64,000 bases of DNA, taken from assembly GCA_007376445.1 (NCBI GenBank), contig VMGF01000001.1, positions 252,203 to 316,202 on the forward strand, written 5' to 3'. This stretch comes from Parcubacteria group bacterium Gr01-1014_3. GTDB lineage: Bacteria; Patescibacteriota; Minisyncoccia; UBA6257; WO2-44-18. This document shows, in pieces, positions 1,633-35,939 of the stretch (position 1 is its first letter; each line of letters begins with the position of its first letter). The position numbers were made by a program, and so were the translations under genes. Below the pieces are notes generated by a model. It saw nothing but the letters and a program-made list of their open reading frames with translations. It had not been told where the DNA came from and did not search any database.

Positions 1633-2733
1633 TTAAAGAGCGAGAGAATAAAGTTTGTTATCATATCGATTAATAAAGTACAGTTTATCTCCGTGGACTT
1701 CGAGTTGATCAGCATCAATAATTAAATCATCGCTGGAGACGAAGAGCGGAAGCGCGCCGCCTAGTGGCCGATGACCTTCGCTGGATAGCGGAATTATATA
1801 AATATTGTCCGCGGTGTAAATTTTGCGTTTCCAGTAATCATCGGGCAGAGCTGATGAGCCAAAAGAGTTTGGGGCGGCGCAGTAAATTTCTATTCTATCC
1901 AGATTAAAGGTGCATTTGGATGGCAAGGTGATTAAGTTGGCTAAATTCCCCAGGCTGATGCCGGCAGCATTAACTAGGGCGAGGGAGTTCTGCCGATTTA
2001 ATGAGCTGAACTTTATTGCCTCTTGTCCGCTTGAGGACCACTTTAAAATAAGGCCAGCCTCATCTTTGATCACGCGGCGGAAAGCGGAGGTTTTCAAATT
2101 AAAAGACCACAATGAGCCAGTTAACCCAGCGGTGGCGCGTTCTTTAAAGTAAACCAAGTCCGGTGTGGCCCAATCTATCTCAATATCCTTTTGAGCGGTT
2201 CGGAAAACTTCGGTGGAGCGGCGTAGGCTGACATCGTAAGTATAAAGCCGGTTCAGAGTTCCATTTTCCCGGAGATAAACCAGGCGGTTATTGTCGGTCG
2301 GACTCCAGCTGACGGCCAGCGTACCGCTTGGTAATCCCTGCCACCCGCTATTAACCGAATTAAAGATTGTAAATGACAGGCCCTGCGGATAGCCGAACCC
2401 TACGATTGCGGAAGTTCCATCGGCGGATGACTCAAGCGAATTAATACTTTTTGGAGCCTGGCTACTGACGGTCTGCGCCACGTTGCCGTCAATTTTTACG
2501 ACTTGGCCCGCTGAGTTTATATAAAATGGAGCGCCATCGGTCTTATTGATCCAGTAAGCCAGAATAGATTCTCCGGAAACCGATTTTGGCTCGTTTTTGA
2601 GCCTTGGTTCTTCGGTCGCGATATCTTCGCTTGCAGGAGCGCCAGCGTTTTGGTCAGCCATAAATTGCCAGATTAAATATCCTGAGCCTCCAACCAGTAG
2701 GGCTACTCCAATGATTAAAAGAATCTTCTTCAT
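1633..2733 (-). CDS. Secreted/anchored beta-propeller-like protein (TolB/WD40-like repeats), hypothetical
   Basis: It has an N-terminal TM/signal sequence (MKKILLIIGVALLVGG) and repeated SPDG/WSP-like strands. It is the last gene of the minus-strand T4SS-like locus. Confidence 0.45.
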   Translation of the reverse strand: MKKILLIIGVALLVGGSGYLIWQFMADQNAGAPASEDIATEEPRLKNEPKSVSGESILAYWINKTDGAPFYINSAGQVVKIDGNVAQTVSSQAPKSINSLESSADGTSAIVGFGYPQGLSFTIFNSVNSGWQGLPSGTLAVSWSPTDNNRLVYLRENGTLNRLYTYDVSLRRSTEVFRTAQKDIEIDWATPDLVYFKERATAGLTGSLWSFNLKTSAFRRVIKDEAGLILKWSSSGQEAIKFSSLNRQNSLALVNAAGISLGNLANLITLPSKCTFNLDRIEIYCAAPNSFGSSALPDDYWKRKIYTADNIYIIPLSSEGHRPLGGALPLFVSSDDLIIDADQLEVHGDKLYFINRYDNKLYSLAL

Positions 2734-2736
2734 GGA

Positions 2737-3564
2737 TTATTGGCCTAAGGCTTTTTTAAGCTTGTCTTCCTCGCTCTGCCAGAGTAATTGTTGATGCTGA
2801 GAGTCCTTTCTCCCCTGTTCATATTGAGCAAACAGTTTTTCGTATTCTTTATTTAATCGTTCAGCTTCGGCTTTATTACCGGCAAGTTTTGCTTCATCTG
2901 CCTTCGCGCCAATAACCGCAAGTTGACGATTTAATTCGTCATTGTTAGCTACAATTTCCCAATACAGAGCTTTTGACGCATTCACATTGTTCTGTAGGAG
3001 ATTGATCAAGTTTTCCTGATTTTTATTGTCTTCATATTGCTGGTTAGCCAGCTTTGCTTTTTCAACGGCCGTTTTAAGCTCTGCATCTCTTTGGGCAGCT
3101 GTTAGCTTAGCTTGCTCTAATTCTGTTTCATACTTTTCGAGCAGTTCGCCGATTGAGGTCTTGGTTTTGGCTGTCGGCAAAGAAACCTTCTGAAGCTCCG
3201 GCAGAGTAAGGTTGGTAAGGTTAGGATTGATGGCGCGGAGGATGACATACGCGCCAAAGAGAAGCACTAAGCCGATCGCGGCTTGGGTGATGCGGTCGTT
3301 GGCGTCTTTAATCTTCGATTCATTACCGGCTGATACGATTCTTTCGATCGCGGCATAAACGATGATGGCCATGCCCAGCAAACCACCAATGCTTAGGCCG
3401 AAAAGATAGATGTAGCGTATATACTCACCAGGATTGGTTATTTGAGTAACTCCACCATCGATTGGAATTGGCACGATTAACGTGGTGGGTTTTATTTGCG
3501 CAAGAGCAAGATTGGAGGAGATCAGCAGGCCGAAGGTTAAGGAAATAAAAAATAGTTTTTTCAT
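2737..3564 (-). CDS. Signal-peptide plus TM protein with long coiled-coil C-terminus (T4SS-like locus component)
   Basis: Signal peptide MKKLFFISLTFGLLISSNLALAQ, one TM segment, and a heptad-rich charged C-terminal half. Confidence 0.45.
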   Translation of the reverse strand: MKKLFFISLTFGLLISSNLALAQIKPTTLIVPIPIDGGVTQITNPGEYIRYIYLFGLSIGGLLGMAIIVYAAIERIVSAGNESKIKDANDRITQAAIGLVLLFGAYVILRAINPNLTNLTLPELQKVSLPTAKTKTSIGELLEKYETELEQAKLTAAQRDAELKTAVEKAKLANQQYEDNKNQENLINLLQNNVNASKALYWEIVANNDELNRQLAVIGAKADEAKLAGNKAEAERLNKEYEKLFAQYEQGRKDSQHQQLLWQSEEDKLKKALGQ

Positions 3565-3565
3565 A

Positions 3566-4276
3566 TTAACGAATTATTAGGTTGGTTGAGGCCGAAGCGC
3601 TTTCGAGAGCTTGGCGGATATTTTGCGCGCTGGCCTCGAGTTTAACTGAAGTTCCTCTCGATAGTCCCCGTGTATCTAAGTCTAGTATATTCGATGCATT
3701 TTCCTCGGTAGCAGCGCCGTTGGCGGTCCAAGTGAAGTTGATCTGATCTAGCCCAGTAATGTTAAAGAAATAAAGGAGCGTTTTTATCGGATTAAGTCCG
3801 GCGGATATTAAATTACCTGGAAATGGAGCATCAATCACCAGTTCCGGATTAACTATCGGCACGGTGATAGTTTTGGATACATCATTACCCTTATAGCCAA
3901 CTACGACTGCCTGAACCGTGGCGTCACCTCTTAGAGAGTCAGCTATGAAAGAAAAACTACGCAATCCCCTGCCCGATTGTCCTAGTTCGTCATTGACGTA
4001 CCAGCGGATCGTATATGGCGCGAGATCAACGAGACGATTATTTTCCAAGAGATCTACGCCGGCCACTACACGCGCTCCGTTAACTGGCAGGACTTTCCCG
4101 GCGTAATCCGGCGGAACGCTATTGCCCGCTTTCCAGCTGAGGAGAAGCTCTGGCGCCTGCTGGGCGGTAGAAGAATTAGGAATCAAGAATAAAGAATAAA
4201 GAATAAATACAATAAAAATTAACCCATAATTCTTGATTCTTGATTCTTGATTCTTAGCCACTGATTCTTGATTCAT
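3566..4276 (-). CDS. Secreted hypothetical protein (T4SS-like locus)
   Basis: It has an N-terminal hydrophobic segment. Its 5' end is built from (aagaatc)n heptamer repeats and their inverted copy. Confidence 0.45.
   Translation of the reverse strand: MNQESVAKNQESRIKNYGLIFIVFILYSLFLIPNSSTAQQAPELLLSWKAGNSVPPDYAGKVLPVNGARVVAGVDLLENNRLVDLAPYTIRWYVNDELGQSGRGLRSFSFIADSLRGDATVQAVVVGYKGNDVSKTITVPIVNPELVIDAPFPGNLISAGLNPIKTLLYFFNITGLDQINFTWTANGAATEENASNILDLDTRGLSRGTSVKLEASAQNIRQALESASASTNLIIR
4178..4273. repeat. (aagaatc)n heptamer tandem repeat with inverted partner (gaatcaagaataaagaataaagaat ... attcttgattcttgattcttgattctta)
   Basis: Perfect 7-bp periodicity. It overlaps the 5' end of ORF 3566..4276. 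Confidence 0.6.
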
Positions 4277-4284
4277 AATTCTGT

Positions 4285-4656
4285 TTATTTTGAAGTGCTT
4301 ATTGGTATTTTCGGCACACCGGGCTTTTTAACGGGCATTTTTTGGGCAATGGACTGGATCTTTTGAGCTACTTGGCTCTCCGGATGGCGGTCGGCATAGA
4401 TCACCATACAGACCCCGATTGTTCTTAACGGCAGAGCGCCGACATAGGGAATAAGCTCAAGCAGGTTCATCGATAAATCATACTCCGCCCCTATCCCTTT
4501 CATTCTAAAATATAATTGGGTTATCGGAAATGTCAGGATATCGATGATCCAAAAGTCGTCTAAGGCCAGGAAAACCAGGATGATGCCGATAATATCGGTA
4601 AGCGCGATATAGCAAACCAGTAAAAAGGCGATGGGAAGTGAGATTTTGGGCTCCAT
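4285..4656 (-). CDS. Small polytopic membrane protein
   Basis: A 123-aa protein with two or three hydrophobic helices, in the same operon direction as the VirB4-like gene. Confidence 0.4.
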   Translation of the reverse strand: MEPKISLPIAFLLVCYIALTDIIGIILVFLALDDFWIIDILTFPITQLYFRMKGIGAEYDLSMNLLELIPYVGALPLRTIGVCMVIYADRHPESQVAQKIQSIAQKMPVKKPGVPKIPISTSK

Positions 4657-4680
4657 GTGAGTAATGAATTATTTAAATAC

Positions 4681-4745
4681 TAATTTTAAATTTTGAATTA
4701 TAAATTTTAATTTAATTTAAAATTGAAAATTTAGAATTTATAATT
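4681..4745. repeat. AT-rich (aatttta/gaaaatt)-type periodic repeat block, intergenic
   Basis: taattttaaattttgaattataaattttaatttaatttaaaattgaaaatttagaattta. Partially palindromic. Confidence 0.5.
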
Positions 4746-6474
4746 ATTTGTTTTCCAATATCTGTTCCGGCTTGGTGGTGATCACCTGGTCTTCCCCATA
4801 CGAAGCTACTATCTGGATAGCCACGTGATTCAAGCCGGCGAAAAACAAACCCAATCCGATCTCTGCCTGAAGCAGAAGGTTTTTTTCGGCTTCGCTGAGA
4901 TTAAAAGTTTTCGCTACGCTATCGATCATCGCCGGAGATTGTTTCAAAAGAAGCTGCATTGAAGAGTTGGTGATGATCGGGCGGCCGAATGGCGAGCTCA
5001 AGAAGTCTTCCACGTCTTGAGTGATAGTGCTGATGCCGAGGAAATATTTTCTGGCTCTCTTTACCAGGGCGAACAAGAAAGAAGCGCCATCCGGATATTT
5101 CATCATCCACCAGGCCTCGTCGATAATCAGAACACGGCGTTTTAATTGAGCGCGGACGATATTCCAAATGAAGTTGAGTACGATATACATCGCGATCGGA
5201 CGAAGTTCGTCCTCAAGGTCACGGATCGAAAATACTACAAGACGATTTTTGACATCAATATTGGTCGGCTGATTAGTGAAGCCAGCATAACTTCCTTTGG
5301 TGAAGCGATAAAGACGTTCGGCGATCTCGCGGCCGCCCTCCATATTTTCTAAAACAGCCTGCAGGTTTTCCATGAGTGGCGGCCTGGCGGTCGAGAAATC
5401 TTTACCAGGCACGATATCAAAAGCCGCGTAAGTTTCTGAGATTGCGCGGTCCAGCAAGGCTTCTTCTTGCGGATTGATCTCGCCAAGCATCAGTTTTACT
5501 AAACCGGTCAGATTTACCACGTGAGACTTCAAAACATCCGCCGGATCTTCACCTTGCGGGATCACCGGAATATCAAAAGGGTTGATGTGGCTTTGCGAAG
5601 CTAACGAAATCTTAAAGAAGCTCCCACCCACCACATTAGCCAGCTGTTGATATTCATTTTCCGGATCAATAATCAAAACATCGGTGCCAGTCATCAAAAG
5701 ACGAAGCGCTTCGAGTTTGGTGGCGTAAGATTTACCGGCGCCGGATTTGGCAAAGATGACCATATTGGCGTTTTCGAGCGAGAAGCGGTCAAAGATGATG
5801 AGGGTGCTGTTGTGGCGGTTAATGCCGTACAAAATTCCTTCATCCGAGGTTAGTGTGGCCGAGACAAACGGAAAGAACGAGGATAATGGGCTGGAATTGA
5901 GCGGGGTGTGAATGTCCAGCTGGTCAGTGCCGAGTGGTAGAACCGAAGAGATGCCTTCGATCTGCTGGAAAAGCGCCGGCTTAGCGTAAACCAACTTACT
6001 TTCCAGGACATAAGTGATCTCGGACTCGAGTTTATTCAGATTTTCGATGGTGTCGGCATAAAGCGTGATATAAACTCCGACATTAAAAAGGTGCTCTTGT
6101 CCCTGCTGGAGAGAATCTCGGAGCGCTTCGATGTCTTGAATGGCAGTTTCTAAGACCGGATTCCGGACTAAGCCCTTCTCTTGCTGTTCAGCGATCTCCG
6201 CCTCCACGATGGCGGCTTTTTTACGGAGATTTTTGAGCGCCATCGGCGTGTCCACCGGATGAACGACGACGGAGATATCTAAAAGATTCGGCAGATTGAT
6301 GATCGGCGAGAACCAACCGGTCGAGAGATAACGAGGATAGGTGAAAATAAAAAGCGTCTTCGCGAATTTATTGCCGAGCTTCACATAATTCGGATTTACC
6401 TCAATAGCCGGTGGGGCGATGATGTTTTTTATTTCTTGTTCCATTATTTTATTGCGCTGGTTCGGCTCGGGCAA
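4744..6474 (-). CDS. VirB4/TrbE/CagE-like type IV secretion ATPase
   Basis: Walker A (FAKSGAGKSYATK) and Walker B (RVLIIDEAWWMM) motifs in a protein of about 576 aa. Gene order and size match VirB4-like ATPases of Gram-positive/CPR T4SS-like loci. Confidence 0.8.
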   Translation of the reverse strand: MPEPNQRNKIMEQEIKNIIAPPAIEVNPNYVKLGNKFAKTLFIFTYPRYLSTGWFSPIINLPNLLDISVVVHPVDTPMALKNLRKKAAIVEAEIAEQQEKGLVRNPVLETAIQDIEALRDSLQQGQEHLFNVGVYITLYADTIENLNKLESEITYVLESKLVYAKPALFQQIEGISSVLPLGTDQLDIHTPLNSSPLSSFFPFVSATLTSDEGILYGINRHNSTLIIFDRFSLENANMVIFAKSGAGKSYATKLEALRLLMTGTDVLIIDPENEYQQLANVVGGSFFKISLASQSHINPFDIPVIPQGEDPADVLKSHVVNLTGLVKLMLGEINPQEEALLDRAISETYAAFDIVPGKDFSTARPPLMENLQAVLENMEGGREIAERLYRFTKGSYAGFTNQPTNIDVKNRLVVFSIRDLEDELRPIAMYIVLNFIWNIVRAQLKRRVLIIDEAWWMMKYPDGASFLFALVKRARKYFLGISTITQDVEDFLSSPFGRPIITNSSMQLLLKQSPAMIDSVAKTFNLSEAEKNLLLQAEIGLGLFFAGLNHVAIQIVASYGEDQVITTKPEQILENK

Positions 6475-7165
6475 TTTCTAATCTTTTTTTCTCAATCGAT
6501 TCTGGGTTGTATAGATTATAAAAAAGTTCCACGATTTCTTCGTTGGCCAAAAGTACCGATCTTAAGCCCATAGAATTCAAGCCACCGATAACCTCGTCTA
6601 CTCTTTGGGTTAATTGCTGGAGATTCTGCTGGAATTGCGGACCCATTTCTGAATTAGCCGAGGTAGAAGCCTTTTTGCCAAAGATTCCAAAGATCTTATT
6701 AAAGATTCCGGCGCCGCCCTTGGTTGGAAGAAAGACCGGATCAAAAGGAACGACCACGAAAAAAGTTTTCGACATGATCGGATTTTGAGAAACGAAGCTT
6801 TGCACGAAATCGTGGTATCCGGTTAATTGCGTCTTGAGCAGCTCGTTTGGTTCTTGAGCCTGGATCCCCTCCAAACGGCGCAAATAGTCCTCAATATTCA
6901 AACGGCGGGAATGAATAAAGACCTGCACGGAAAAATTCAGTGAATTTAGAAAATTTTGGTAAGCATAAGTAAGCAGTCCTTGCTCCTCCTCGGACTTTAA
7001 ATCAAAATTAACTCCGCTGACCATCAAAATTTGGCGCAATCCGCCATTTTTTAAGATCAGGGTGTTCTCCTGGACTGTTTCAATATTAATAAACTTCTGC
7101 GTCGGTTGAGATTTCGCTTGTGCCATCTTCCTTATTATAACAAACTTCACCAATATACGAATCAA
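6449..7165 (-). CDS. Hypothetical protein of the T4SS-like locus (start probably at the internal Met MAQAKSQ, about nt 7126)
   Basis: A contiguous ORF immediately upstream of the VirB4-like gene. No recognisable motif. Confidence 0.4.
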   Translation of the reverse strand: MIRILVKFVIIRKMAQAKSQPTQKFINIETVQENTLILKNGGLRQILMVSGVNFDLKSEEEQGLLTYAYQNFLNSLNFSVQVFIHSRRLNIEDYLRRLEGIQAQEPNELLKTQLTGYHDFVQSFVSQNPIMSKTFFVVVPFDPVFLPTKGGAGIFNKIFGIFGKKASTSANSEMGPQFQQNLQQLTQRVDEVIGGLNSMGLRSVLLANEEIVELFYNLYNPESIEKKRLEIARAEPAQ

Positions 7166-7182
7166 GCACTAATATACGAACA

Positions 7183-7650
7183 CTAGAATGACGAGTCTTT
7201 AGAATCTTGCGCCTGTTTCAGCGCTGTCGGTGAAGCCTTTTCTCGCCCAACGATACCGGCTGTGGTCGTCAAAAGTTTGGTCCAAAGGCTCTTAATTGAA
7301 GTTTTCCCTTCAGGTGAGCTCATTTGGCCGGCTTTAGGCAGGCGGATTTCGGTCAATTTAAGCGTGGCGTCTTCTCTTTGCCAGAGGTACATTCTTGGCT
7401 GCCAAAAGTAGCTCACTATGCTCTTTAAAATGACCGGCAGAGGCCGTCCGTTGAACTTAATAAACGCTAAAGCCGCCGCCGCGGTGCCCAAAATAACAGT
7501 GATAATCAGCCAAAGCCAGATTTGGAGCACAAAGAACAAGAAAAAGCTGATTAGCGAGGCCACGCCTATATATAGGAACTGCTTGAGTGTGAGCGGGCCG
7601 ACTATCTTAGTTTCCGTTTCGATAAATTGTGGAACCTGAAATTGGCTCAT
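7183..7650 (-). CDS. Two-TM small membrane protein (VirB3/PrgI-like candidate)
   Basis: A 155-aa protein with two adjacent TM helices. Its position near the VirB4-like ATPase is as expected for VirB3-like proteins. Confidence 0.4.
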   Translation of the reverse strand: MSQFQVPQFIETETKIVGPLTLKQFLYIGVASLISFFLFFVLQIWLWLIITVILGTAAAALAFIKFNGRPLPVILKSIVSYFWQPRMYLWQREDATLKLTEIRLPKAGQMSSPEGKTSIKSLWTKLLTTTAGIVGREKASPTALKQAQDSKDSSF

Positions 7651-8285
7651 TGGTTTTGGTCTGGCTTAGGAAAATTTATCGGCAATCTCACGATTGGTGG
7701 ACGGAGGGGCTGAAAGGTTGGGCGATTTTGCGGGATCGGGGGCGGGGTTGGAATTTGGCGAACCGGGGGTTCTACGACAACCTTCGGAGGTTCAACTCTT
7801 ATGGCTATTGGTGTTTGGATTGGTTGGGCTGGTGCCGGAGTTATGCTGTCATTCTGATCCGCCGGCTGGCGGAGAAGAATCTCGAGTTCCTTCGGCTGCG
7901 CCTCAGGATGACCGGGCCCCGGTTTCGCGAAATAAATTAATTTAATATCTATATCCGCCTCCCTTCTCAGTTGTCCTTCGATCGGCCGGAGAATTTTTTC
8001 TTCGATCTCTTGGGCGATATTTTTGGCGCTATTAAAATCTATATCCAACTCTTCGGAAAGAATATTAATAAATTCACCCGGCTCAATATCTTTGGTAACT
8101 AACCGGAGAATGGTAGTCGGAATTATTTTTACTAATGGCCCGGCCATATCCAGCCTTTCATTAATATCAATAACCACATAAGTCGCCCTCTCGGAGGTCA
8201 GCCATTCGCGGATTTTATCCGGAAGCTCGTCAAATTTTTTTCTTAAATCAGCTTTATTCATCATCGCCGATAGTTTGTTGGGCAA
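7647..8285 (-). CDS. Hypothetical protein with proline-rich C-terminus
   Basis: An ORF with a PPxxP-rich tail, translationally coupled to its neighbours. Confidence 0.45.
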   Translation of the reverse strand: MPNKLSAMMNKADLRKKFDELPDKIREWLTSERATYVVIDINERLDMAGPLVKIIPTTILRLVTKDIEPGEFINILSEELDIDFNSAKNIAQEIEEKILRPIEGQLRREADIDIKLIYFAKPGPGHPEAQPKELEILLRQPADQNDSITPAPAQPIQTPIAIRVEPPKVVVEPPVRQIPTPPPIPQNRPTFQPLRPPIVRLPINFPKPDQNQ

Positions 8286-10296
8286 ACTTTAATTTTTTAT
8301 AAGCAATCTTTTGAGTATCACTTCCGGCTGTTAATTTGGTTTTCTCATCAGCTCGATAGACTTTCAAAATTGACTGCAGAGTAGAAACCTTGCTCTTATC
8401 GCCGACTTCTTTAGCTTCGGTAATTTGCTTAAGAGTAAGGGCGATATCTTCATTGATTTTCCGGAGATCCGCGCCGATCTCTTTTTCCATGGTCTTTTTC
8501 AGGGCGGATCGTTGAAGTATAGTGCCCCTGCGATAGATATCACTAATTGCCGCTTGACTTAAACCAAGTACAAAATCCACCTCGTTAAACATCTCTTTTT
8601 CCACGTCCGCGGCTTTATCGGCGCGCATCTTCTCGGCAATCTGCTTGAGGGTCTTGCCGGTAAGTTTGGCGGTTAATCTTGGGCTCGTAGAGAGCGCGTC
8701 TTTAACATTCGGAACGTTTTCGATATTTTTCCTAATCTTTTTGCCGTCCACGATTTCTTCGGTATCGGCAATGCCTGGATTAACCTTTCGTGAAGCTTGA
8801 ATGAATTGTTCAAGACGCGCGTCCTTTTCCTCCGAAGTTGCCAAGTGCGCGGTTAATCCGCCAACTTCTTTACGCTTAACCGACTCAGCCAAAAGAGCTG
8901 CTTGTTCCACCGGACTGATTCTTTCGATTCTTGTAGTTTTTTGGCGTTCAGCAAACTGCTGTTCAGTCAGGCTAGATAGATATTGTTTCTGATAATCACC
9001 TACTTCATTAGATCGAGAGGCAGCTACATTCAGCCCCGCCACGGCGGCTTTGCTGCCAGGAATCCAACGCAGGGCTTTAGTATTTAATAGATTGGCGAGA
9101 GCATTGGCGCCGGCTTTAGCTGGACGCGTGCCAAGCTCTTGTGCCCCGGCCCGAGCGCCCGTCAATGGTAATCTCGCCGCTTTCCCGGTCGCGCCAATAA
9201 TCCAGCCCTTGGCGCTGTTCGCCATGCCCATAGCGGTATTCGCGCCAACGGCGCCAAGTTTTTGAGCTACTATTAACCCCGCGAACATCATTCCAACCTG
9301 GACTATGATTTGCAAAAAGCCGATCAAGACGCCCTCACTTAGCCCGGAGATCGTTTTAGCGGCCGCGAAGGCTTCCGGACTGGCTTGGCTTTTTAATACC
9401 GCGCCGAGTTTATCGGAGGTAAGAATACTTAAGTAAAGGAAGAATGAAATGGCGGGGAAAAATACGTTCCATTTCAAAAAAGTACTCCACCATTCAGAGC
9501 TGTGCTTAGCTAGATTCGGGAATATCCAGGCTAACCAGGCGAGTGGCATCACAATCAGCAAGAAGATCAGATAGATATACCGGACAAGGAGCATGAAAGC
9601 GATCGCGAAGAAAGTGATTACGAGGGTGGTCATAAATATCGCGGTGGAGGCCACCGAAACGAATGCACTGATATAACTTAATCCGAACTTTAAAATGTCG
9701 CCGCTGATATTTTCTGGAACGGCGATTTTAATGCCGCTCAGGCTGCTTACATTCAAGCTTTGCGCCAAATTGGCGGCAAAGTTATTAATATTTTCTGGAG
9801 AGGCAGCTTGAATGAAGTAGTTACCAAAAACATTGAAGAAATCGATGATGATGCCGGCAAAAGTGAAGCTGAAGTTGACTAACAAAGCGGCCGCGACCAA
9901 TTTCCAAATCATCTGCTTAAAGCCGTAGTTTTGCAGGCGGAGCATGGTGGCAAAAGCAATGACAATAATTGCAATGACGAAGCCTAAATTTGTCATACTC
10001 AATGTCAATCTGAATCCTTCACGCACAAGAGGGCTGCTAGTAATTTGCGGGCCTAAGTTAATCAATACACCTATAAGAGAGCTGGCGATTGAAATTAAAA
10101 ATCCCGCCACTATGCCTATCATGTTGCCAACCGCTAATGAGCCCCAGTTGAAAAACTGCATTAAGCCACAGAGTATCCAGCCCGACTGGCATTCAGGCGT
10201 TTTTTCTTGCGCGAAAGCCAGCGCTGGTGCCAATAATACCGAAACCATCATTAAACCCAAGAGGAATTTTTTCATTATGGATTGGTTAGCTGGCAT
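8254..10296 (-). CDS. Large polytopic membrane protein, VirB6/TrbL-like
   Basis: A 680-aa protein with a signal peptide, many TM helices in the N-terminal 350 aa, and a charged coiled C-terminal domain. This is typical of VirB6-like proteins found next to VirB4 in CPR loci. Confidence 0.55.
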   Translation of the reverse strand: MPANQSIMKKFLLGLMMVSVLLAPALAFAQEKTPECQSGWILCGLMQFFNWGSLAVGNMIGIVAGFLISIASSLIGVLINLGPQITSSPLVREGFRLTLSMTNLGFVIAIIVIAFATMLRLQNYGFKQMIWKLVAAALLVNFSFTFAGIIIDFFNVFGNYFIQAASPENINNFAANLAQSLNVSSLSGIKIAVPENISGDILKFGLSYISAFVSVASTAIFMTTLVITFFAIAFMLLVRYIYLIFLLIVMPLAWLAWIFPNLAKHSSEWWSTFLKWNVFFPAISFFLYLSILTSDKLGAVLKSQASPEAFAAAKTISGLSEGVLIGFLQIIVQVGMMFAGLIVAQKLGAVGANTAMGMANSAKGWIIGATGKAARLPLTGARAGAQELGTRPAKAGANALANLLNTKALRWIPGSKAAVAGLNVAASRSNEVGDYQKQYLSSLTEQQFAERQKTTRIERISPVEQAALLAESVKRKEVGGLTAHLATSEEKDARLEQFIQASRKVNPGIADTEEIVDGKKIRKNIENVPNVKDALSTSPRLTAKLTGKTLKQIAEKMRADKAADVEKEMFNEVDFVLGLSQAAISDIYRRGTILQRSALKKTMEKEIGADLRKINEDIALTLKQITEAKEVGDKSKVSTLQSILKVYRADEKTKLTAGSDTQKIAYKKLKFAQQTIGDDE

Positions 10297-11717
10297 TGGG
10301 TTAGTTGCAGGTTAAATCCGGCAAGTTTCTGGGTGATGTTGGTAGCTACCTCTTCATCCATTGCTTCAATGGCGGATTTAAATGAAGAAGCATCGATTGG
10401 TTTTAAGATGGAGGTAATCGAGTTGTAAATTGTGCCCATCTTGGCAAAATCAGTTTCAGTTTTTTGGAGAGAGGCAATGTCGGCTTTGGCTTGAACCAGC
10501 GGATCTATGATCGCCTGATTAGCGGCTTTGTCCGCTTGAAGGAGAGCGATAGTGGCATCGGTAGCGCTGATCTCGTTTAAGATCGCGTCTTTGACTTGCG
10601 TTACTACGACTATAGACGGGAAAAGAGGCGTGGCTATACAGATCGTAGTAGGGAGATTGGTGAAGTCTTGATGAAGCTTTTGAAGATCAGCCTTGAACTT
10701 GATCAAAGCATCGATGGTCAGGTTAACAATTATCCCAGCTTGTTGACGAGGAACGAGAGTCTGATCGATCTCGTCTAAGAATGTAGTTTTTTGTTGATCG
10801 AAACTGTTATTAAGCACTTCGTTGTATATTTTAGTGATGTCATCTTGCTGCTTGTCAGTAATAGATTCTTGCAAGCCGGTCAAACCCTCGGCGACCAGAC
10901 GATTAACTAGAGAATTAGCAATCGCGCTCGCGTATTCACCAAGCTGTTGGGCGTTTAAGATAAAGTCAAAGTCTTTTCCAACGGCCTTAGATACTAAGTC
11001 GCCAACCGTAGAGCCAGGAGTGATGATACGGCATTTTTCCGTGCCATCAGGAAAAAGCTCACATTTCTTTTGTGATATAAATCCATCGCCTGCCTGGGCT
11101 TCATTATAAGCGGCAAAGGCGGCCGCGGATTTTCGGATCTCATTTTCTTGAAGGGCCATAATCAAAGCTCCGAAATAGTTATTTCTTGGCTGAAGCGAAG
11201 TGCCATAAGCTAGCCAACCGCCATTTCTGAAGTCATTATAAAAATTGTTAATATTTCCGACAATCTTATCGAGAGTGCATTCAGCTTTTTGCGCGAAAGT
11301 TGGAATTTTGTAGAAGTTTATCTGGATACCAAAACGGAATGGTTCGCAGAGAAAGCCAGCGCCAAGTTCTTTGGCGAAATCTCCCGCTGCCGCTTGACCA
11401 GCATCTTCCAGAAAACCTTTCCAGTCAGTAACGAACTGTGGCTGACCGCCACCCTGGATATAAGAAACAACCTGGTCAACCAAGACATCTAACAGTCGCC
11501 GCTTAAGCGTGGAGAGGGCAAAAGTTTCCAGCCAATCCAAAATTTGTTGCGCCGCTGACTTGGTTGTAGCGGCGGCAATCGCGGCTGCCTGGGCATGTAT
11601 AACAGCATCGGCTATCATAACTGGAATAGCGGCTTTGGCGGTTGGGATTGGAAACGACCCGATGGTCTGCATCAGTATCGTGATTCCTAGAAGGATTGTT
11701 AAGATTCGTCTTTTCAT
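10275..11717 (-). CDS. Secreted hypothetical protein
   Basis: Signal peptide MKRRILTILLGITILMQTIGS, 480 aa, and it overlaps the downstream gene. Confidence 0.45.
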   Translation of the reverse strand: MKRRILTILLGITILMQTIGSFPIPTAKAAIPVMIADAVIHAQAAAIAAATTKSAAQQILDWLETFALSTLKRRLLDVLVDQVVSYIQGGGQPQFVTDWKGFLEDAGQAAAGDFAKELGAGFLCEPFRFGIQINFYKIPTFAQKAECTLDKIVGNINNFYNDFRNGGWLAYGTSLQPRNNYFGALIMALQENEIRKSAAAFAAYNEAQAGDGFISQKKCELFPDGTEKCRIITPGSTVGDLVSKAVGKDFDFILNAQQLGEYASAIANSLVNRLVAEGLTGLQESITDKQQDDITKIYNEVLNNSFDQQKTTFLDEIDQTLVPRQQAGIIVNLTIDALIKFKADLQKLHQDFTNLPTTICIATPLFPSIVVVTQVKDAILNEISATDATIALLQADKAANQAIIDPLVQAKADIASLQKTETDFAKMGTIYNSITSILKPIDASSFKSAIEAMDEEVATNITQKLAGFNLQLTQCQLTNP

Positions 11718-27915: not shown

Positions 27916-28776
27916 CTAGGACAGATTTTTTAATTTAGAATTTAAGTTCAGTTTGGGGTATAAGTCTTGAGGGTAGATTGCGACCAGGCGTATTCCAAGT
28001 TTTTCACAAATTTTTTTCTTAATTTTCATATCTCGATCATAACGCGGACTATCTCCTGCGAGACCGAAATACTCTATGAATAATGTGTCATTTATAGCCC
28101 AGTCCGCTTTGTGACCACTATTGGGATAAGGGAAATCTCGTAGGTGCTTAACTTCGTTGTCGGATAGCCAGTTATCAATCAACGCCTCGGAGATAGAATC
28201 ACAAGAGTGGCCATCTTTCGCCTTGGTCATCGTGCGTTTATACATTCTGTGCTCGTGAGAACGATTAGGTTCCAAGCCCGCGGCTTTAATGGCGTTGCCC
28301 CAAGAACCGAATGCATATATACATGGACTTGCTAGTTCGGGTATTTCACGTTTTGCCGGGACCCTTCCCAGCTTCTCATAAGTATGTTTTAGAGATTTAA
28401 TCAGATCCTCTGGTTTATGTCGCACGCGAGATTTCTTATAGCAAACATTTGCGCAATAGATATTGCCGCCTGTAAATTGTTTTTCGCAGATTCGGCAAAT
28501 TTTTAACTTAATAACATGTTTAGGAAATTTTTTGTTATTAACAATAGCGGCGCACCTCATAGAACAGTAATTATGCGCCCCAACTTCTTTTCTAAATTTT
28601 TTAAATTCGGCGCCGCATTCAGTGTTTTCACAAACAAATGATACTTGTTTATTAAAGGAACGGCCTTGACACTCCTTGGAACAATAAAAATTATGCCCCA
28701 ATTTTTGATTTTCGTTAAATCTATTCCTGGGTTTAAAAAACTTTTTTCTGCAATTATTACACCGCACCTCTGGCAT
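27916..28776 (-). CDS. Multi-zinc-ribbon protein with C-terminal Vsr/DUF559-like endonuclease-like domain, putative
   Basis: At least four CxxC pairs in the N-terminal half. The C-terminal segment ADWAINDTLFIEYFG...RYDRDMKIKKKICEKLGIRLV resembles PD-(D/E)XK Vsr-like folds. The gene is AT-rich and abuts tRNA-Pro. Confidence 0.4.
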   Translation of the reverse strand: MPEVRCNNCRKKFFKPRNRFNENQKLGHNFYCSKECQGRSFNKQVSFVCENTECGAEFKKFRKEVGAHNYCSMRCAAIVNNKKFPKHVIKLKICRICEKQFTGGNIYCANVCYKKSRVRHKPEDLIKSLKHTYEKLGRVPAKREIPELASPCIYAFGSWGNAIKAAGLEPNRSHEHRMYKRTMTKAKDGHSCDSISEALIDNWLSDNEVKHLRDFPYPNSGHKADWAINDTLFIEYFGLAGDSPRYDRDMKIKKKICEKLGIRLVAIYPQDLYPKLNLNSKLKNLS

Positions 28777-31456: not shown

Positions 31457-31618
31457 CTAGTATTCATGCCCCAGAGATCAGTCTCCGGGGCTTTTTATTT
31501 ATCTGGCCAGAGGGTTGATGGCTATTGCCTTTTAAGCTCAAAATCAGTATTCTTTTATCAGGATTCCTTCACAAAACGAGTTATCCACAGGATATCCCGC
31601 CCAAGGGCGAGACAAGTC

Positions 31619-31890: not shown

Positions 31891-32103
31891 ATCTACCATT
31901 TCTTTTTCTGCGAAGTACACTATGCGCATTATCACGATTTGGTCTTCGTTGGTATGAGCGGCGAGCACTTTGAAATTTTCTGGCTCAAGCTGATTCTTGA
32001 TCAGCCAATCGACCACCTTCTGTTCCACTAACGTATTATTTGGATCTCCCCTGCCACCTGTATAATAAAATACTCTGCAGAACCATCTTTTTTCACCCAT
32101 CAT
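31888..32103 (-). CDS. Small hypothetical protein (71 aa)
   Basis: ORF only; the coding call is weak. Confidence 0.25.
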   Translation of the reverse strand: MMGEKRWFCRVFYYTGGRGDPNNTLVEQKVVDWLIKNQLEPENFKVLAAHTNEDQIVIMRIVYFAEKEMVD

Positions 32104-32237
32104 TCATCCCCTTTCAATGTTCAGCTGAATAATAACAAATGTTAATTCAAAAATCAAACCACAAATTTTTGAACTGTAAATATTGTTTTCAGTTTCGATA
32201 AAAGTTATTCTGAATTCGGATTTTTGAAAGGTAAAAA

Positions 32238-32750
32238 ATGGATTCACATAAGTCGATCCAGGAATTTCTGCGCGAATTAAAATCGCGGCCGCCAAATAAC
32301 CGGAGCGACAACGAAAGATTATTTTTGCGGTACAACGAATTTATTCTTTCATCGATTGCCGATTATAAAAGATTGGCGAGTCAAGATTGCCGGATTGATT
32401 GGGATGATGTTTATCAGGATGCCGCGGTCGCGCTCTTAGAGATCGCGAAAGATCCGGACATACGTGGAAATTTCTCGACTTATGTTCAACGGGAAATAAT
32501 AAACTCAATCCGAAGATCGGTAGAAACAGAATCACAGTTCAAAGATTTTGTGAGCCGTCTAAGGTTGGAGCTCAGACTCTACCAGAAATGTGTCCAGGAG
32601 CTTCACGCGAAGCTTCGGCGAACACCGACGACTACCGAGATCGCCAAACAGCTTGGATTGCCGTCTTTACATATCGCCCACCTCAAGAGGCTATGTCAGG
32701 CTGCTCGCGACTACGAAATGATGGATTACTTGACAGAGTGGCCTAATTAA
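32238..32750 (+). CDS. Small sigma-70 family RNA polymerase sigma factor (regions 2 and 4 only)
   Basis: Region 2-like segment DVYQDAAVALLEIAKDPDIRGNFSTYVQREIINSIRR and a region 4 HTH (TTTEIAKQLGLPSLHIAHLKR). Confidence 0.6.
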   Translation: MDSHKSIQEFLRELKSRPPNNRSDNERLFLRYNEFILSSIADYKRLASQDCRIDWDDVYQDAAVALLEIAKDPDIRGNFSTYVQREIINSIRRSVETESQFKDFVSRLRLELRLYQKCVQELHAKLRRTPTTTEIAKQLGLPSLHIAHLKRLCQAARDYEMMDYLTEWPN

Positions 32751-32789
32751 GTTAATATACAAGAAGTACATTTAAGGAGCTGAGCGTGA

Positions 32790-32956
32790 ATCGCTTCAAC
32801 AGCACCATGTAATTTATTCCCAGGACGACGGCCATGGGAGGCTAAGGGCTCCAAACCCTCAGCCTCCCCGATCAAACTAAGCCCCTCATCAGGGCTGTCC
32901 GCGGGTAAACAAGCAGTATTTAGCCAGTAACGCCAGTTACTGGCTATTTTTTTTGT
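32790..32956 (+). ncRNA. Candidate structured RNA / 3'UTR element ending in an intrinsic terminator
   Basis: Nested GC helices: gggaggct(aagggctccaaaccct)cagcctccc at 32836..32868, agccc-ctcatca-gggct at 32880..32896, and terminator agccagtaac-gcc-agttactggct plus T8 at 32921..32955. Confidence 0.35.
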
Positions 32957-33010
32957 TTGACAGGCAATATTAGTGCGTGGGTTGTTTAACAGACCATTTA
33001 GCTTCAACTT

Positions 33011-33048
33011 ACCAAGTGTGAAACATTTTAAAATGTTTCACACTTGGT
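33011..33048. promoter_or_regulatory. 38-bp perfect palindrome ACCAAGTGTGAAACATTTT|AAAATGTTTCACACTTGGT (operator or homodimeric-endonuclease-site-like)
   Basis: Two 19-bp arms with no spacer. The GTGAAACA core recurs five more times around the LAGLIDADG gene. Confidence 0.5.
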
Positions 33049-33135
33049 AATAAAAATGTTTAGCGAAAAAAGTGTCAAACACCGTTCGGAATTTAAGCAC
33101 AAAACTAATGGTTCGTTTGTCGTGAAACAAATTGC

Positions 33136-33579
33136 CTAATCTCGAAGAGCGTTTCTATCCCACCACCCTGTCTTATAGAGTCTATGTAAAACTTTATATG
33201 TATCGGCAACCATTGGATCTGAGCCGATCTTTTCTAGCCAATCTACAAATTGCTTAGATTTATGACCCTTTAATTTCCCATAGAAAAAGGGGATTATGAT
33301 ATTTTTGAGATCCCCAAAATTACGCACCATTAAAGCAGCCCGTAATCCACGAATAGAGCCAACTACTTCTTGGGGTTTATGTATATAAACTCGAGACTTA
33401 AGGCCAAGATGATCTCTAACGGCCTCGATTAACTCTTTATCTCTAATATGCATAACTAGCGCAAAGGCCGGCATTTTCTCTTTTACTGGTAATCCATCTT
33501 TGGTTGTGCTCCGGGTGTGAAATGTAAAACAGCCCTCTCCATCTACTAACCCACGGATATATTCATTGCTTAGCTTCAT
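33136..33579 (-). CDS. LAGLIDADG homing endonuclease, single-motif (I-CreI-like, homodimeric type)
   Basis: Motif YIRGLVDGEGCF near the N-terminus in a 147-aa protein. The gene is free-standing rather than inside a recognisable intron or intein. Confidence 0.75.
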   Translation of the reverse strand: MKLSNEYIRGLVDGEGCFTFHTRSTTKDGLPVKEKMPAFALVMHIRDKELIEAVRDHLGLKSRVYIHKPQEVVGSIRGLRAALMVRNFGDLKNIIIPFFYGKLKGHKSKQFVDWLEKIGSDPMVADTYKVLHRLYKTGWWDRNALRD

Positions 33580-33683
33580 AATATTAATAATGTTTCACGT
33601 TTTACTTGATACCAAACAGAGAACATGTTTCACTGTATAACATATATTATACTAAATTCTTTGTAATACGTGAAACAATCCAA

Positions 33684-34049
33684 ATGAACAGTAAAGCGAA
33701 TACGGGTAATTTAGGGGAGGACCTAGCATGCAGGTATCTAATTAATAATGGGTATAAAATTTTAGATCGTAATTTCAGGAAACCATGTGGAGAAATAGAT
33801 ATCATCGCGAAGGATAACGACGCGACCATTGTATTCGTTGAGGTTAAGGCATTACGCAGGGCGAGCTCATTATCCCCAGAAGATAATATGAGTAGTTCGA
33901 AAATTGCCAAGATTAACCGAACAGCATCTCTCTGGGCGGGATCTAATGACGCATCAATTAATCAAGAAAAGGGATTCAGGGTTGATTTAGTTGCGGTAGA
34001 ATTGGCCAACTGGCAGGATCCGATTATTCGGCACTATAAGAATGTATAA
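33684..34049 (+). CDS. yraN: YraN/UPF0102 family endonuclease (PD-(D/E)XK)
   Basis: Motif GEDLACRYLINNGYKILDRNFRKPCGEIDIIAKD...VFVEVKA. The start is set at the internal Met MNSKANTG; the listed ORF starts at 33606. Confidence 0.65.
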   Translation: MNSKANTGNLGEDLACRYLINNGYKILDRNFRKPCGEIDIIAKDNDATIVFVEVKALRRASSLSPEDNMSSSKIAKINRTASLWAGSNDASINQEKGFRVDLVAVELANWQDPIIRHYKNV

Positions 34050-34099
34050 ATTGTGAGAGATTGTTTAACGCCAAACAATACGGCAATCCGGCAATGCGG

Positions 34100-34205
34100 C
34101 AAAAGAGGCAATTGCCGAATAGGTTGCCGCATTATTTGACAAAATAAGCTAACATGGCGTTTTGAAAGTTATCCACATTGCCGCATTTACATAATGCGGC
34201 AATTG
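34100..34205. promoter_or_regulatory. Array of TTGCCGCATT/AATGCGGCAA half-sites (two composite palindromic operators)
   Basis: O1 is AATGCGGCAA-aagag-GCAATTGCC-gaatagg-TTGCCGCATT. O2 is a perfect IR, ATTGCCGCATT-tacat-AATGCGGCAAT. Additional cggcaat direct repeats are present. Confidence 0.45.
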
Positions 34206-34214
34206 TATTTTAAT

Positions 34215-34335
34215 AAGGTTAGTCCCTTGATAAAACCTTAACGTGAGATTTAGGCATCCTGCCTAAGTCAAACATCTCATTTTCTCTATTCCGCCTTACT
34301 GAGGCGGACCAATATAGTAGCCGGGTCATACACCC
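34215..34335 (+). other. Cluster of four consecutive hairpins ending in an intrinsic terminator (possible sRNA or structured 3'UTR)
   Basis: Stems aaggtta/taacctt, ttaggca-tcc-tgcctaa, tccgcc-ttactga-ggcgga, and agccgggt-cataca-cccggct followed by a T-run. Confidence 0.35.
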
Positions 34336-34430
34336 GGCTATTTTAATTTAGATAAGACTTAAAGATATAAAAATTTAAATATTGAAATGGCAAAATTAGT
34401 GCTGGGGTAAATTGCGGTATAATAATCTCA

Positions 34431-35180
34431 ATGAAAAAAGAAGCATTTGCCGAGCGGGCGGCGGAGAAGCGGGATATAAATGAAGCGGCCGGTGAGCATC
34501 TGGAAAAGATGGCGGAGTTTTTGTCAGCGGAAAGCGAGCGGCTCCGGAGCGAGGGATTTCCAGTAGATGAAGATTGCCGGATCGATTTACGAGAATTTGA
34601 AGATCTATATTCAAAAGAAGTCTTAGAGCGCGATAAGGAAAAAGTTTCCAAGATCGAAGCTGGATTTGAAAACAGCCAATCGGAAAAGATCGCCGAGCTT
34701 CTTGAGGCTGTAAAAACCTTAGTATTTAATAAATTCTGGTTTGATGGACGATTGGTAGCGGTTCGAACTTCAAAATTCGATGACTATACGAACGGGGTTG
34801 ATCAGCTGATCTTAGACCGAGATACTTTCCAACCGCTCGCGGCGGTTGATACGACACTCGACTGGAAGAGTAAATTGCCAAAAATAATGGATAAGATTCA
34901 AAAAGGCAGCGTGGTGAAATATGGCGTGGGTCTTTCTAAGGACGGTGTTGAGAAAATGAGCTATACAGGGCTTCCGGTTTTTATTATTTCGCTGAACGGC
35001 GACGAGGTGCTGGAGTTGGCGCGGGGGATCGAGGCCGGAGAGTTAGGCGAGGAAGGTGAGCGGTTGGCTGGCGTGGTGGCGGAAGAGCTTTCCCGGCAGA
35101 GCCAACAGCTTTCTAGTCTGACTGGCGGAAAACTGCAGTCTTCTTATTCATCGGCCAACAAAATTTTCAAAGCTTTATAG
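34431..35180 (+). CDS. Hypothetical protein (249 aa)
   Basis: The ORF has TGcgGTATAAT placed about 8 nt upstream of the ATG, which may indicate a leaderless mRNA. No domain recognised. Confidence 0.45.
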   Translation: MKKEAFAERAAEKRDINEAAGEHLEKMAEFLSAESERLRSEGFPVDEDCRIDLREFEDLYSKEVLERDKEKVSKIEAGFENSQSEKIAELLEAVKTLVFNKFWFDGRLVAVRTSKFDDYTNGVDQLILDRDTFQPLAAVDTTLDWKSKLPKIMDKIQKGSVVKYGVGLSKDGVEKMSYTGLPVFIISLNGDEVLELARGIEAGELGEEGERLAGVVAEELSRQSQQLSSLTGGKLQSSYSSANKIFKAL

Positions 35181-35249
35181 TTTTGATTATATAATGTAGA
35201 TTAGTAGCGTACTTTCACAAGGTAAAAATCTACAAAAAGGAGATGGTCA

Positions 35250-35939
35250 TTGAACATCACTGCTCTTCTGATCATTGTGGCCGCCTTACTATTGTTGGCG
35301 CTAATAGGTGGATGTGTAGCTACCCAGCCAAAGCTTCAACCGATATCTGATTTAAAATCAGCGCACGGTGTGGTCTTGCGTGGTCCGTTTAATCACCAAG
35401 ATGTTTTTGAGCTAGATAGGAATTTGATGGCTTTCCCGCCTTCGGTCATAAAATCTATTTCTTCCGTATCTTTGGTGTATTACGATTATCTTGGACCAAA
35501 TGAGGCTGGTCACTGCCATCACACGCGGGATATTTGTATTCTTTCGGGACACCTCATTGCTATATGGCACGAGGCAGGGCATGCCTATCATTTCTATCTC
35601 AGGATGATCAAAAGTCCTTTTGATCGGGAGTGGAATGAATTGTCTAAGGGCCTTTATGATCCCAACCGTTATTCTGGCGATCCAACTTACCCGAAGGACG
35701 GAATTTTGAGCGGGTACGGCAGCCGGACTCAGATGGAAGATGTGGCTGTGTATGTAGAAATGATTTACCATCGACTCAGGATGCCGGCTACCGACGATAT
35801 GCCACTTTTCAGTCGGCCAGAATTCAAGAAGGATTTTCGGTTTCGGGCTAAAGTAAATTTGCTTCGCAAGTACGGGTTTATCGGCGAAGGGGACTATAAG
35901 ACATTCTGTAAACTGGTCCGGCTTGACTCCGAAGATTAA
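35250..35939 (+). CDS. Lipoprotein zinc metallopeptidase (HExxH)
   Basis: Lipobox LIGGC, an HEAGH motif, and a downstream acidic residue. Confidence 0.5.
   Translation: MNITALLIIVAALLLLALIGGCVATQPKLQPISDLKSAHGVVLRGPFNHQDVFELDRNLMAFPPSVIKSISSVSLVYYDYLGPNEAGHCHHTRDICILSGHLIAIWHEAGHAYHFYLRMIKSPFDREWNELSKGLYDPNRYSGDPTYPKDGILSGYGSRTQMEDVAVYVEMIYHRLRMPATDDMPLFSRPEFKKDFRFRAKVNLLRKYGFIGEGDYKTFCKLVRLDSED

Follow-up and report, generated by a model that had tools for sequence, protein, structure and literature searches.

A putative homing-endonuclease gene lodged in an origin-proximal array of parS-type sites in a Parcubacteria group bacterium

The LAGLIDADG gene and the repeats around it

The window analysed here is a stretch of 64,000 nucleotides (64 kb) from Parcubacteria group bacterium Gr01-1014_3. 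It contains a free-standing single-motif LAGLIDADG homing-endonuclease gene (33136..33579, minus strand), whose open reading frame (ORF) encodes a protein of 147 aa beginning with MKLSNEYIRGLVDGEGCF and lies among copies of the 8-mer GTGAAACA and its complement TGTTTCAC. Its divergent neighbour is yraN (33684..34049, plus strand), which encodes a UPF0102 PD-(D/E)XK nuclease (Pfam E 4.5e-24) and serves as the anchor of the locus. An earlier note, made from the sequence of the window alone, had named both genes correctly, and had suggested that the repeats are operators of the endonuclease, remnants of its target, or terminal repeats of a small mobile cassette.

The ORF matches Pfam PF00961 (LAGLIDADG_1) with an E-value of 9.5e-10 and a score of 39.7 bits (cut-off 23.1). 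More than 250 relatives of 140-185 aa were found among public proteins, nearly all from metagenome-assembled genomes of Parcubacteria/Paceibacteria, and the query protein itself is annotated from Gr01-1014_3. The family shows 52% mean column identity, and the catalytic Glu15 (GLVDGEG) is invariant in alignment A1. Of 86 relatives, 81 retain the G-E-G with the catalytic Glu, and L036, L041, L064, L065, and L072 have lost it, a pattern as expected for a mostly active endonuclease family with occasional decay. A profile built from 27 relatives matches I-PanMI, I-LtrWI, and I-OnuI in the PDB (E down to 6.6e-20). The AlphaFold2 (AF2) model has a predicted local distance difference test (pLDDT) of 91.9, a predicted template modelling score (pTM) of 0.85, and an alpha-beta-beta-alpha-beta-beta-alpha core. 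In a Foldseek comparison the model came closest to domains of the I-OnuI family and to homodimeric I-TnaI, which likewise has 147 residues (probability 1.00). Profile, fold model, and catalytic residue together indicate that the product is a genuine LAGLIDADG endonuclease of I-CreI/I-TnaI size and probably an active one, and the single motif in 147 aa suggests that it would work as a homodimer.

The gene lies outside any intron, intein, or rRNA, as the earlier note had stated, and is placed between yraN and non-coding repeats with a promoter-like site of its own. Neither Intron_gpI nor any other relevant Rfam family was matched at the gathering score in the whole window or at E<=10 in 32000-34500, and a group I intron or other RNA host was rejected on these scans. 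A phage origin was rejected as well, since viral contigs held no relatives of the protein and gave one weak viral match only.

The 8-mer GTGAAACA or its complement is found eight times in the window, and six of the eight copies lie within 660 bp around the LAGLIDADG ORF. Dinucleotide-preserving shuffles gave a mean of 1.65 copies and a largest count of 5, with 0 of 100 reaching 8. The clustering is not an effect of composition and is far above chance, so that the count singled out by the earlier note is indeed out of the ordinary. The six copies are found at 33018-25(+), 33034-41(-), 33122-29(+), 33591-98(-), 33626-33(-), and 33670-77(+), which agrees with the number given before and corrects its coordinates by 0-2 nt. 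With the relaxed half-site TGTTTNNC, 14 matches were found in 32954-34274 (1.3 kb) vs approximately 0.6 per kb elsewhere in the window.

The most regular element of the cluster is a 42-bp palindrome (33009..33050) downstream of the LAGLIDADG gene, in which two half-sites stand "inside-out" (GTGAAACA-N8-TGTTTCAC). It is perfect, as previously described, and with 21+21 nt longer than the 19+19 first reported. Its hairpin as single-stranded DNA has a z-score of -8.8. A similar arrangement, GTGAAACA-N7-TGTTTCAC, is also found in L008, L009, L024, L026, and L057.

The parS-like array and its position near the origin

The consensus parS site is TGTTTCAC-GTGAAACA, a nucleation site which is bound by a ParB dimer, occurs in multiple copies and almost always lies near oriC (10.1101/724823). 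By sequence identity, the 8-mer GTGAAACA is the half-site of canonical parS (TGTTTCAC|GTGAAACA), and ParB would be expected to bind such sites. Related loci were collected from two sources. From genomes, 80 loci encoding relatives of the LAGLIDADG protein were fetched, and a metagenome scan with a YraN alignment gave 80 yraN loci, of which approximately 28 have the LAGLIDADG gene divergently upstream and approximately 40 have at least 700 bp upstream without the gene. In 70 genome loci the density of GTGAAACA is 1.95 per kb from -200 to +600 of the gene vs 0.04 per kb in the remaining ~350 kb.

Further comparison revealed that the arrays do not depend on the gene. Perfect copies of the 16-mer TGTTTCACGTGAAACA form arrays beside yraN in gene-less loci (eight copies in L158, eight in L140, nine in L110, and five in L151), and clade variants of the form TGTTTNNC|GNNAAACA are found in other gene-less loci, for example TGTTTCGCGCGAAACA and TGTTTGTCGACAAACA. 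In total, the same arrays are present in about 20 loci without a LAGLIDADG gene. The sites are therefore a pre-existing host feature, independent of the endonuclease gene, and none of the three explanations first offered for them is supported in its original form. Several other identities for the motif were considered and dropped in view of the full 16-mer TGTTTCACGTGAAACA in relatives; these were a variant DnaA box, an extracytoplasmic function (ECF) sigma -35 element, a CRP/LacI-type operator, and the I-CreI rDNA target GTGAGACA.

The core TGTTT/AAACA is the same in all loci, and variation between and within loci falls on the two bases that follow it. Half-site variants include TGTTTCAC, TGTTTGCC/GTC, TGTTTAGC, TGTTTATC, TGTTTCGC, and TGTTTTAC, and the sites may form 16-bp palindromes, stand in tandem at a spacing of 2-4 nt, or make up inside-out pairs. 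In the window, the sole exact match to the clade pattern TGTTTNNCGNNAAACA is a full parS-like palindrome just past the yraN stop (TGTTTAAC|GCCAAACA, 34062..34077), where 0.24 matches would be expected. A degenerate parS-like 16-mer, TGTAATAC|GTGAAACA (33662..33677), lies 6 nt ahead of the yraN ATG (33684); it has 3 mismatches to canonical parS and its position is kept in L164 and L166. Downstream of the LAGLIDADG gene there is a split site in canonical orientation with a 9-nt gap (TGTTTAGC-N9-GTCAAACA, 33057..33081), which is kept in L164, and split-site gaps of 7-9 nt recur among gene-bearing loci. Relaxed half-sites mark the edge of the array on the plus strand (TGTTTGAC at 32954 and TGTTTAAC at 32983, spanning 32954..32990).

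Two further sites account for the bracketed appearance of the ORF. On its 5' side, a degenerate parS-like 16-mer (AGTAAAAC|GTGAAACA, 33591..33606, minus strand) lies 12 nt ahead of the LAGLIDADG start, with a perfect ORF-proximal half. On its 3' side, the parS-like 16-mer CGTTTGTC|GTGAAACA (minus strand: TGTTTCAC|GACAAACG; 33114..33129) lies 6 nt past the stop codon (33136-38). This site has one mismatch to TGTTTNNCGNNAAACA, and its position is the same in L164 and L166 with the central bases swapped. In 70% of 86 loci a GNNAAAC half-site in gene orientation ends 10-60 nt before the YIRG anchor (other orientation, 21%), and in 44% GTTTNNC is found within 30 nt past the stop. The aligned flanks have the 5' consensus tGT(t/a)nnnC|GnnAAACA and the 3' consensus TGTTTnnC|GanaaACa. 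Both flanks can be read as full-length, degenerate parS-like 16-mers, in which the ORF-proximal halves are intact and the distal halves have decayed. As the ORF sits in the spacer between two array sites, it has a half-site at each end in inverted orientation, without repeats of the transposon type.

Two of the six copies of the motif lie at or next to the predicted promoter of the LAGLIDADG gene. A sigma-70-like promoter is predicted at 33646..33674 on the minus strand (TTCACG-17-TATAAT, 10/12 in a consensus scan), and its -35 element overlaps the half-site at 33670. A TATAAT box is found at the equivalent relative position in many related loci. Just downstream of the -10 box, the 17-bp near-palindrome TGTTTCAC-T-GTATAACA (33626..33642) is a candidate operator. 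It is the counterpart of TGTTATAC-N-GTATAACA in relatives and is kept in L164 and L166; a homologous promoter palindrome was found in 12 of 86 gene-bearing loci, each 18-58 nt ahead of the start. The closest relatives, with 79% and 87% protein identity, have the sites at the same positions but with the variable bases swapped. Approximately 95 nt around the 42-bp palindrome are also near-identical in L164, where the adjoining non-coding DNA diverges. Since the site positions and the palindrome region are kept while their neighbours diverge, the sites are under constraint.

The array is also placed as expected for parS. L167, a 20-kb sequence from the same organism, extends the window leftwards and contains a classical origin region, dnaN-dnaA followed by rpmH-rnpA-yidC-jag, with one perfect DnaA box in the dnaA-rpmH spacer. 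This block of origin genes (7317-9300 of L167, corresponding to about -1980 to 0 of the window) stops a few hundred bases short of window position 1, so that the window begins essentially at the origin region, and the array thus lies ~34 kb from dnaA, which is origin-proximal. No parS-like site was found in the 20 kb of L167, and no other parS-like cluster from -9 kb to +64 kb.

A number of points weigh against parS, some from the sites themselves and some from the search for their binding protein. The window has no exact parS, and even its best 16-mers differ from the canonical site at 3 positions. Both central bases of a half-site are free to change, from one locus to another and also inside a single locus. 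This is unusual for ParB sites, and one of the bases concerned is known to set ParB/Noc specificity (10.1101/724823). Many half-sites stand in arrangements which no ParB dimer is known to use (tandem with 2-4 nt gaps, inside-out with gaps of 4 or 7-8 nt), and the array regions hold other repeat families as well (CGGCAAT and TGTAGGTTTTAT). Moreover, a ParB or ParA gene was found neither among the ORFs of the 64-kb window searched with Pfam (not every ORF was scanned), nor among the called genes of L167, nor in the ~160 related loci. A scan of all loci for the GERRxRA motif gave 0 hits for ParB, and the neighbour clusters of the ~160 loci were likewise without it; nor was a ParB of this clade found in literature searches. 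The parS assignment is based on sequence identity, copy pattern, and proximity to the origin, which together point to a candidate centromere.

The other repeats in these regions are observations in their own right. In the window, a cluster of CGGCAAT/ATTGCCG-type repeats (AATGCGGCAA, TTGCCGCATT) at 34077-34205 includes a perfect DnaA box at 34169-77. Similar species-specific iterons (CGGCAAT, CTGCAAT, TCGGAAAT) adjoin the parS-like arrays of most related loci, whether these carry the LAGLIDADG gene or lack it. A third family, TGTAGGTTT(T/C)AT / ATAAAACCTACA, is often found as inverted pairs in downstream regions (e.g., L052, L055, L066, L125, and L130), and in the related loci it is ~50-fold enriched next to the gene (32 near, 4 far).

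Exchange of the gene and loss of full palindromes

In the genome loci, yraN is the divergent neighbour of the LAGLIDADG gene in 68 of ~80. The history of the gene differs from that of the genes next to it. Pairwise identities of the LAGLIDADG proteins correlate weakly or not at all with those of the flanking proteins (Spearman 0.10 for YraN, 0.34 for NusA, and -0.02 for ComM). In L034 and L039 the LAGLIDADG proteins are 91% identical, vs 61% for YraN and 72% for ComM. At the DNA level these two loci are ~85% identical from -257 to +575 (~110 nt past the gene) and ~40% identical outside, and the tract of similarity has its left end inside yraN and its right end inside the array. Gene-less L125 and gene-bearing L130 are collinear in the distal repeats, and three full palindromes in L125 take up the interval that is occupied by promoter and ORF in L130. 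Such comparisons indicate that the gene is present or absent at a fixed place among close relatives and has been exchanged horizontally as a ~0.8-kb cassette; as the earlier note had supposed, it behaves as an insertion relative to relatives.

Such a pattern marks a free-standing element of the homing type that is exchanged through homologous replacement, and homing, with cleavage of an empty allele, would be its putative mechanism of spread. One point speaks against homing. In the one close filled/empty pair L118 (gene) and L119 (no gene), the flanks are 90% identical and a 599-bp gene-bearing segment stands in place of 200 bp. A clean filled/empty site was therefore rejected for this pair, which represents a replacement and not a clean insertion.

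The explanation that we consider the best, and hold to be probable, is that a free-standing, horizontally exchanged homing-endonuclease gene is lodged in an origin-proximal parS-type array in this Parcubacteria group. The six GTGAAACA/TGTTTCAC copies would be parS half-sites, of the kind at which ParB dimers would nucleate to segregate the origin, and the array of parS-type sites would be a host feature of the clade in the non-coding DNA beside yraN. The gene for the 147-aa homodimeric-type endonuclease would have been inserted in the spacer between two array sites, divergent from yraN. It would be a mobile passenger, spread by homologous replacement of a ~0.8-kb block that includes the gene, the yraN 5' end, and the first downstream repeats. 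The YraN nuclease resolves transformation D-loops together with ComM (bioRxiv 10.1101/2024.02.06.579203), and natural competence has been reported in Saccharibacteria (PMC10187176). With this role of YraN and this competence, natural transformation would be a plausible route of exchange. In gene-bearing alleles, the window included, the array has mostly orphan or crippled half-sites and few full palindromes. This scheme is founded on the identity of the motif with parS, the independence of the array from the gene, its nearness to the origin, the endonuclease fold and catalytic residue, the presence/absence polymorphism, the discordant phylogeny, and the exchange tract. It would further entail binding by ParB, endonuclease activity, spread by homing, and roles of individual sites as promoter elements or operators.

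The loss of full palindromes was examined in those loci that have an array. One full 16-mer or more was found in 6 of 59 gene-bearing loci vs 15 of 21 gene-less loci (Fisher 2.5e-7, not phylogenetically corrected), and in the metagenome-only set the figures are 1 of 9 vs 15 of 21 (p = 0.004). A perfect partner half accompanies 53% of half-sites in gene-less arrays vs 8% in gene-bearing ones, with a random expectation of ~0. By YraN similarity the two gene states are interleaved, which gives several independent contrasts (L110/L038, L125/L041+L130, L103/L019, L087/L031, and L140/L133).

From this association, a further possibility arises which would extend the best explanation without excluding it. 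The LAGLIDADG homodimer could cut full parS-type palindromes (16 bp and flanks, with the cut at the central ACGT or NCGN) and so home into intact arrays without an intron; gene-bearing alleles would survive since their neighbouring sites are crippled in one half. The scarcity of full palindromes and partner halves beside the gene is what would be predicted, a palindromic target suits a single-motif homodimer, and in L130 the gene occupies exactly the interval which holds three full palindromes in L125. Moreover, L065 is one of the loci without the catalytic Glu, and there perfect parS stands beside the gene. Conversely, L026, L052, L063, and L066 keep the catalytic Glu and yet have 2-4 full palindromes nearby, so that catalytic inactivation was rejected as the general reason for full palindromes in gene-bearing loci and holds for L065 only. 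The gene-less loci L085, L088, L098, and L119 are also without full palindromes. The statistics ignore phylogeny, the association could stem from an exchanged cassette carrying its own repeat architecture, and the loss of centromere sites should be costly. We regard cleavage of these palindromes as a tentative proposal that is more likely wrong than right.

In this modified form the "target remnant" idea of the earlier note may survive, with an enzyme that recognises full palindromes of the parS type, these being depleted in gene-bearing loci. A bolder version, in which the endonuclease family has colonised the chromosome's own centromere, cuts parS-type palindromes, spreads by transformation and gene conversion beside yraN, and leaves orphan half-sites behind, is speculative and at best a minor contender. 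If it were true, segregation sites and a selfish nuclease would be in direct conflict.

In another explanation, the sites would be operators of the LAGLIDADG protein, autoregulating or domesticated, which would act on its own promoter and on yraN, and the cluster would be owed to the gene. I-TevI, for example, represses its own promoter through a site that resembles its homing site. In the predicted promoter a half-site or palindrome overlaps the -35 element and also the region of +1, which would suit such a role, as would the palindrome 18-58 nt ahead of the start in relatives. The linkage to yraN is likewise kept in two arrangements, the divergent one and a co-directional one in more distant family members (L068-L070, about 3992-4805), where the LAGLIDADG gene is directly upstream of yraN. 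However, the arrays stand in about 20 loci without the gene, the motif equals parS, and the arrangements of sites are too varied for one rigid homodimer. A gene phylogeny discordant with the neighbours would also be unexpected for a domesticated regulator, and we consider the operator explanation improbable.

It is about equally improbable that the region is bound by a protein other than ParB or is part of an origin or iteron region, its likeness to parS being coincidental or due to a ParB-like, functionally different system. The failure to find a ParB gene and the variable central bases would fit, and so would the co-occurrence of CGGCAAT iterons, TGTAGGTTTTAT repeats, and occasional perfect DnaA boxes, which are enriched near the gene and in the window are found at 31581 and 34169. 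An oriC had in fact first been suggested here by a strand switch near 30.4 kb, where gene orientation diverges, together with two perfect DnaA boxes and several repeat families. Against this stand matches of 16/16 to parS up to 8-9 times per locus. An oriC at the locus was rejected, as the DnaA-box profile was weak, with only 0-2 boxes per locus and some of them inside the yraN coding sequence, and the dnaA-rpmH region is 34 kb away. For most of the window, GC skew is positive to the left as well as to the right of the locus; it does not change sign there and was not informative.

Least probable by far is a small transposon-like cassette with the LAGLIDADG gene, for which the inverted copies would serve as terminal inverted repeats. 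Inverted half-sites do abut both ORF ends in most loci, but the gene occupies one chromosomal place beside yraN with no cassette copies elsewhere in 160 loci, the similarity tracts end inside yraN and the array with no transposase, target-site duplications, or sharp ends, and the "repeats" are found in gene-less loci as well.

The motif belongs to a type of element already known (parS). The novelty lies in the LAGLIDADG gene, conserved and mobile, that occupies an array of the centromere type beside a gene for a transformation nuclease; where it is resident, palindromes are mostly lost. The identification of parS gives these uncultivated Parcubacteria a candidate centromere, placed relative to dnaA. 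Its passenger is a well conserved and apparently active gene, gained, lost, and exchanged between lineages, whose presence goes with palindrome loss. If the enzyme targets parS-type sites, it would exploit, as a homing element, a DNA sequence that is among the most conserved in bacteria; this would bear on the evolution of centromere arrays in reduced genomes and provide a natural meganuclease for a 16-bp site found in most bacterial chromosomes. If it does not, this would be an ordinary homing-endonuclease gene in an unusual, harmless landing place.

Surrounding genes and comparison with known systems

Other neighbours of the gene across loci are housekeeping genes (nusA/infB, rpsT, holA, a DksA-like gene, comM, ftsH, uvrD, and ftsK). 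In the window, the tRNA-Lys (31619-92) and tRNA-Val (31778-849) genes noticed earlier are present. The "small sigma factor" of the earlier note corresponds to a 170-aa ORF (32238-32750, plus strand) with a sigma-70 r3 match of 9e-6; the match is weak and r2 falls below the cut-off, so that the ORF is at most sigma-like. It is kept in the closest relative L164 and is not part of the locus in other genomes, and it was rejected as the binder of the motif on this lack of conservation.

A candidate small RNA is found at 32766-32955 (plus strand), convergent with the LAGLIDADG gene. Its features are a TTGACA-17-TAATAT promoter (32730-58), an intrinsic terminator with a T run (32921-46), and a minimum free energy of -69.8 kcal/mol (z = -4.96); it is kept in L164 while adjoining DNA diverges, and it matched no Rfam family. 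On the other side of the locus, two ORFs (249 and 229 aa; 34431-35939, plus strand) that match no Pfam family separate yraN from nusA. As nusA-infB directly follows yraN in 22 related loci, the ORF pair looks like a local insertion.

Additional genes of possible mobile or regulatory nature were noticed. A 286-aa protein (27916-28776, minus strand), encoded between tRNA-Pro and a YdjM-like gene, has a "homing endonuclease associated repeat" (HNH_repeat, E 2e-12) and may be a second endonuclease-related gene in the window. In eight related loci (L027 4737-5390 and seven others; cluster 23), an ORF of ~180 aa with an N-terminal helix-turn-helix-like stretch (…YGYSLNEIAKNLNVSKSSASIWVRNV…) lies downstream of the array; seven of the eight loci bear the LAGLIDADG gene, and this ORF could be another endonuclease-like or regulatory gene. 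Near the origin, a type IV secretion-like gene run (1633-11717, minus strand) includes a TraG-type P-loop ATPase (4744-6474) and a pilin-like protein (2737-3564), to which the annotation of L167 adds PrgI and TraC-like products. This run is possibly a conjugative or DNA-transfer apparatus.

Among known systems, the array is closest to parS/ParB (ParABS), with which it shares an identical half-site, a perfect multi-copy 16-mer in related loci, and a single cluster ~34 kb from dnaA. It differs in that the sites of the window are orphan or degenerate (at least 3 mismatches), the central bases vary, tandem and inside-out sites are unusually dense, and a ParB gene was not found in the sequence searched here.

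The gene itself resembles the free-standing seg/mob homing genes of phage T4, which are likewise intergenic between conserved genes, present or absent at a fixed locus, and discordant in phylogeny with their neighbours, with co-conversion of flanking DNA (a ~0.8-kb tract in the present case). However, the enzyme here is of the LAGLIDADG and not the GIY-YIG/HNH type, it is encoded on a bacterial chromosome without phage context, and its transfer is presumably by transformation and not by co-infection.

With I-CreI, I-TnaI (5gkk), and I-ShaI from the candidate phyla radiation (CPR) (PMC11270868), the protein shares a length of ~147 aa, one motif, the same fold, and the conserved catalytic acid, and a palindromic target would be expected for it. 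Those enzymes are encoded in rRNA introns or insertion sequences and cut rDNA, whereas the present gene lies outside any intron or rRNA, and in sequence its product is closest to I-OnuI-type domains.

Lastly, WhiA is also a chromosomal, non-intron LAGLIDADG-fold protein of bacteria with DNA sites near its own gene. WhiA has two degenerate domains and a helix-turn-helix, lacks catalytic residues, and is inherited vertically, whereas the protein of the window is a single-domain protein with its catalytic Glu in place, and its gene is exchanged horizontally.

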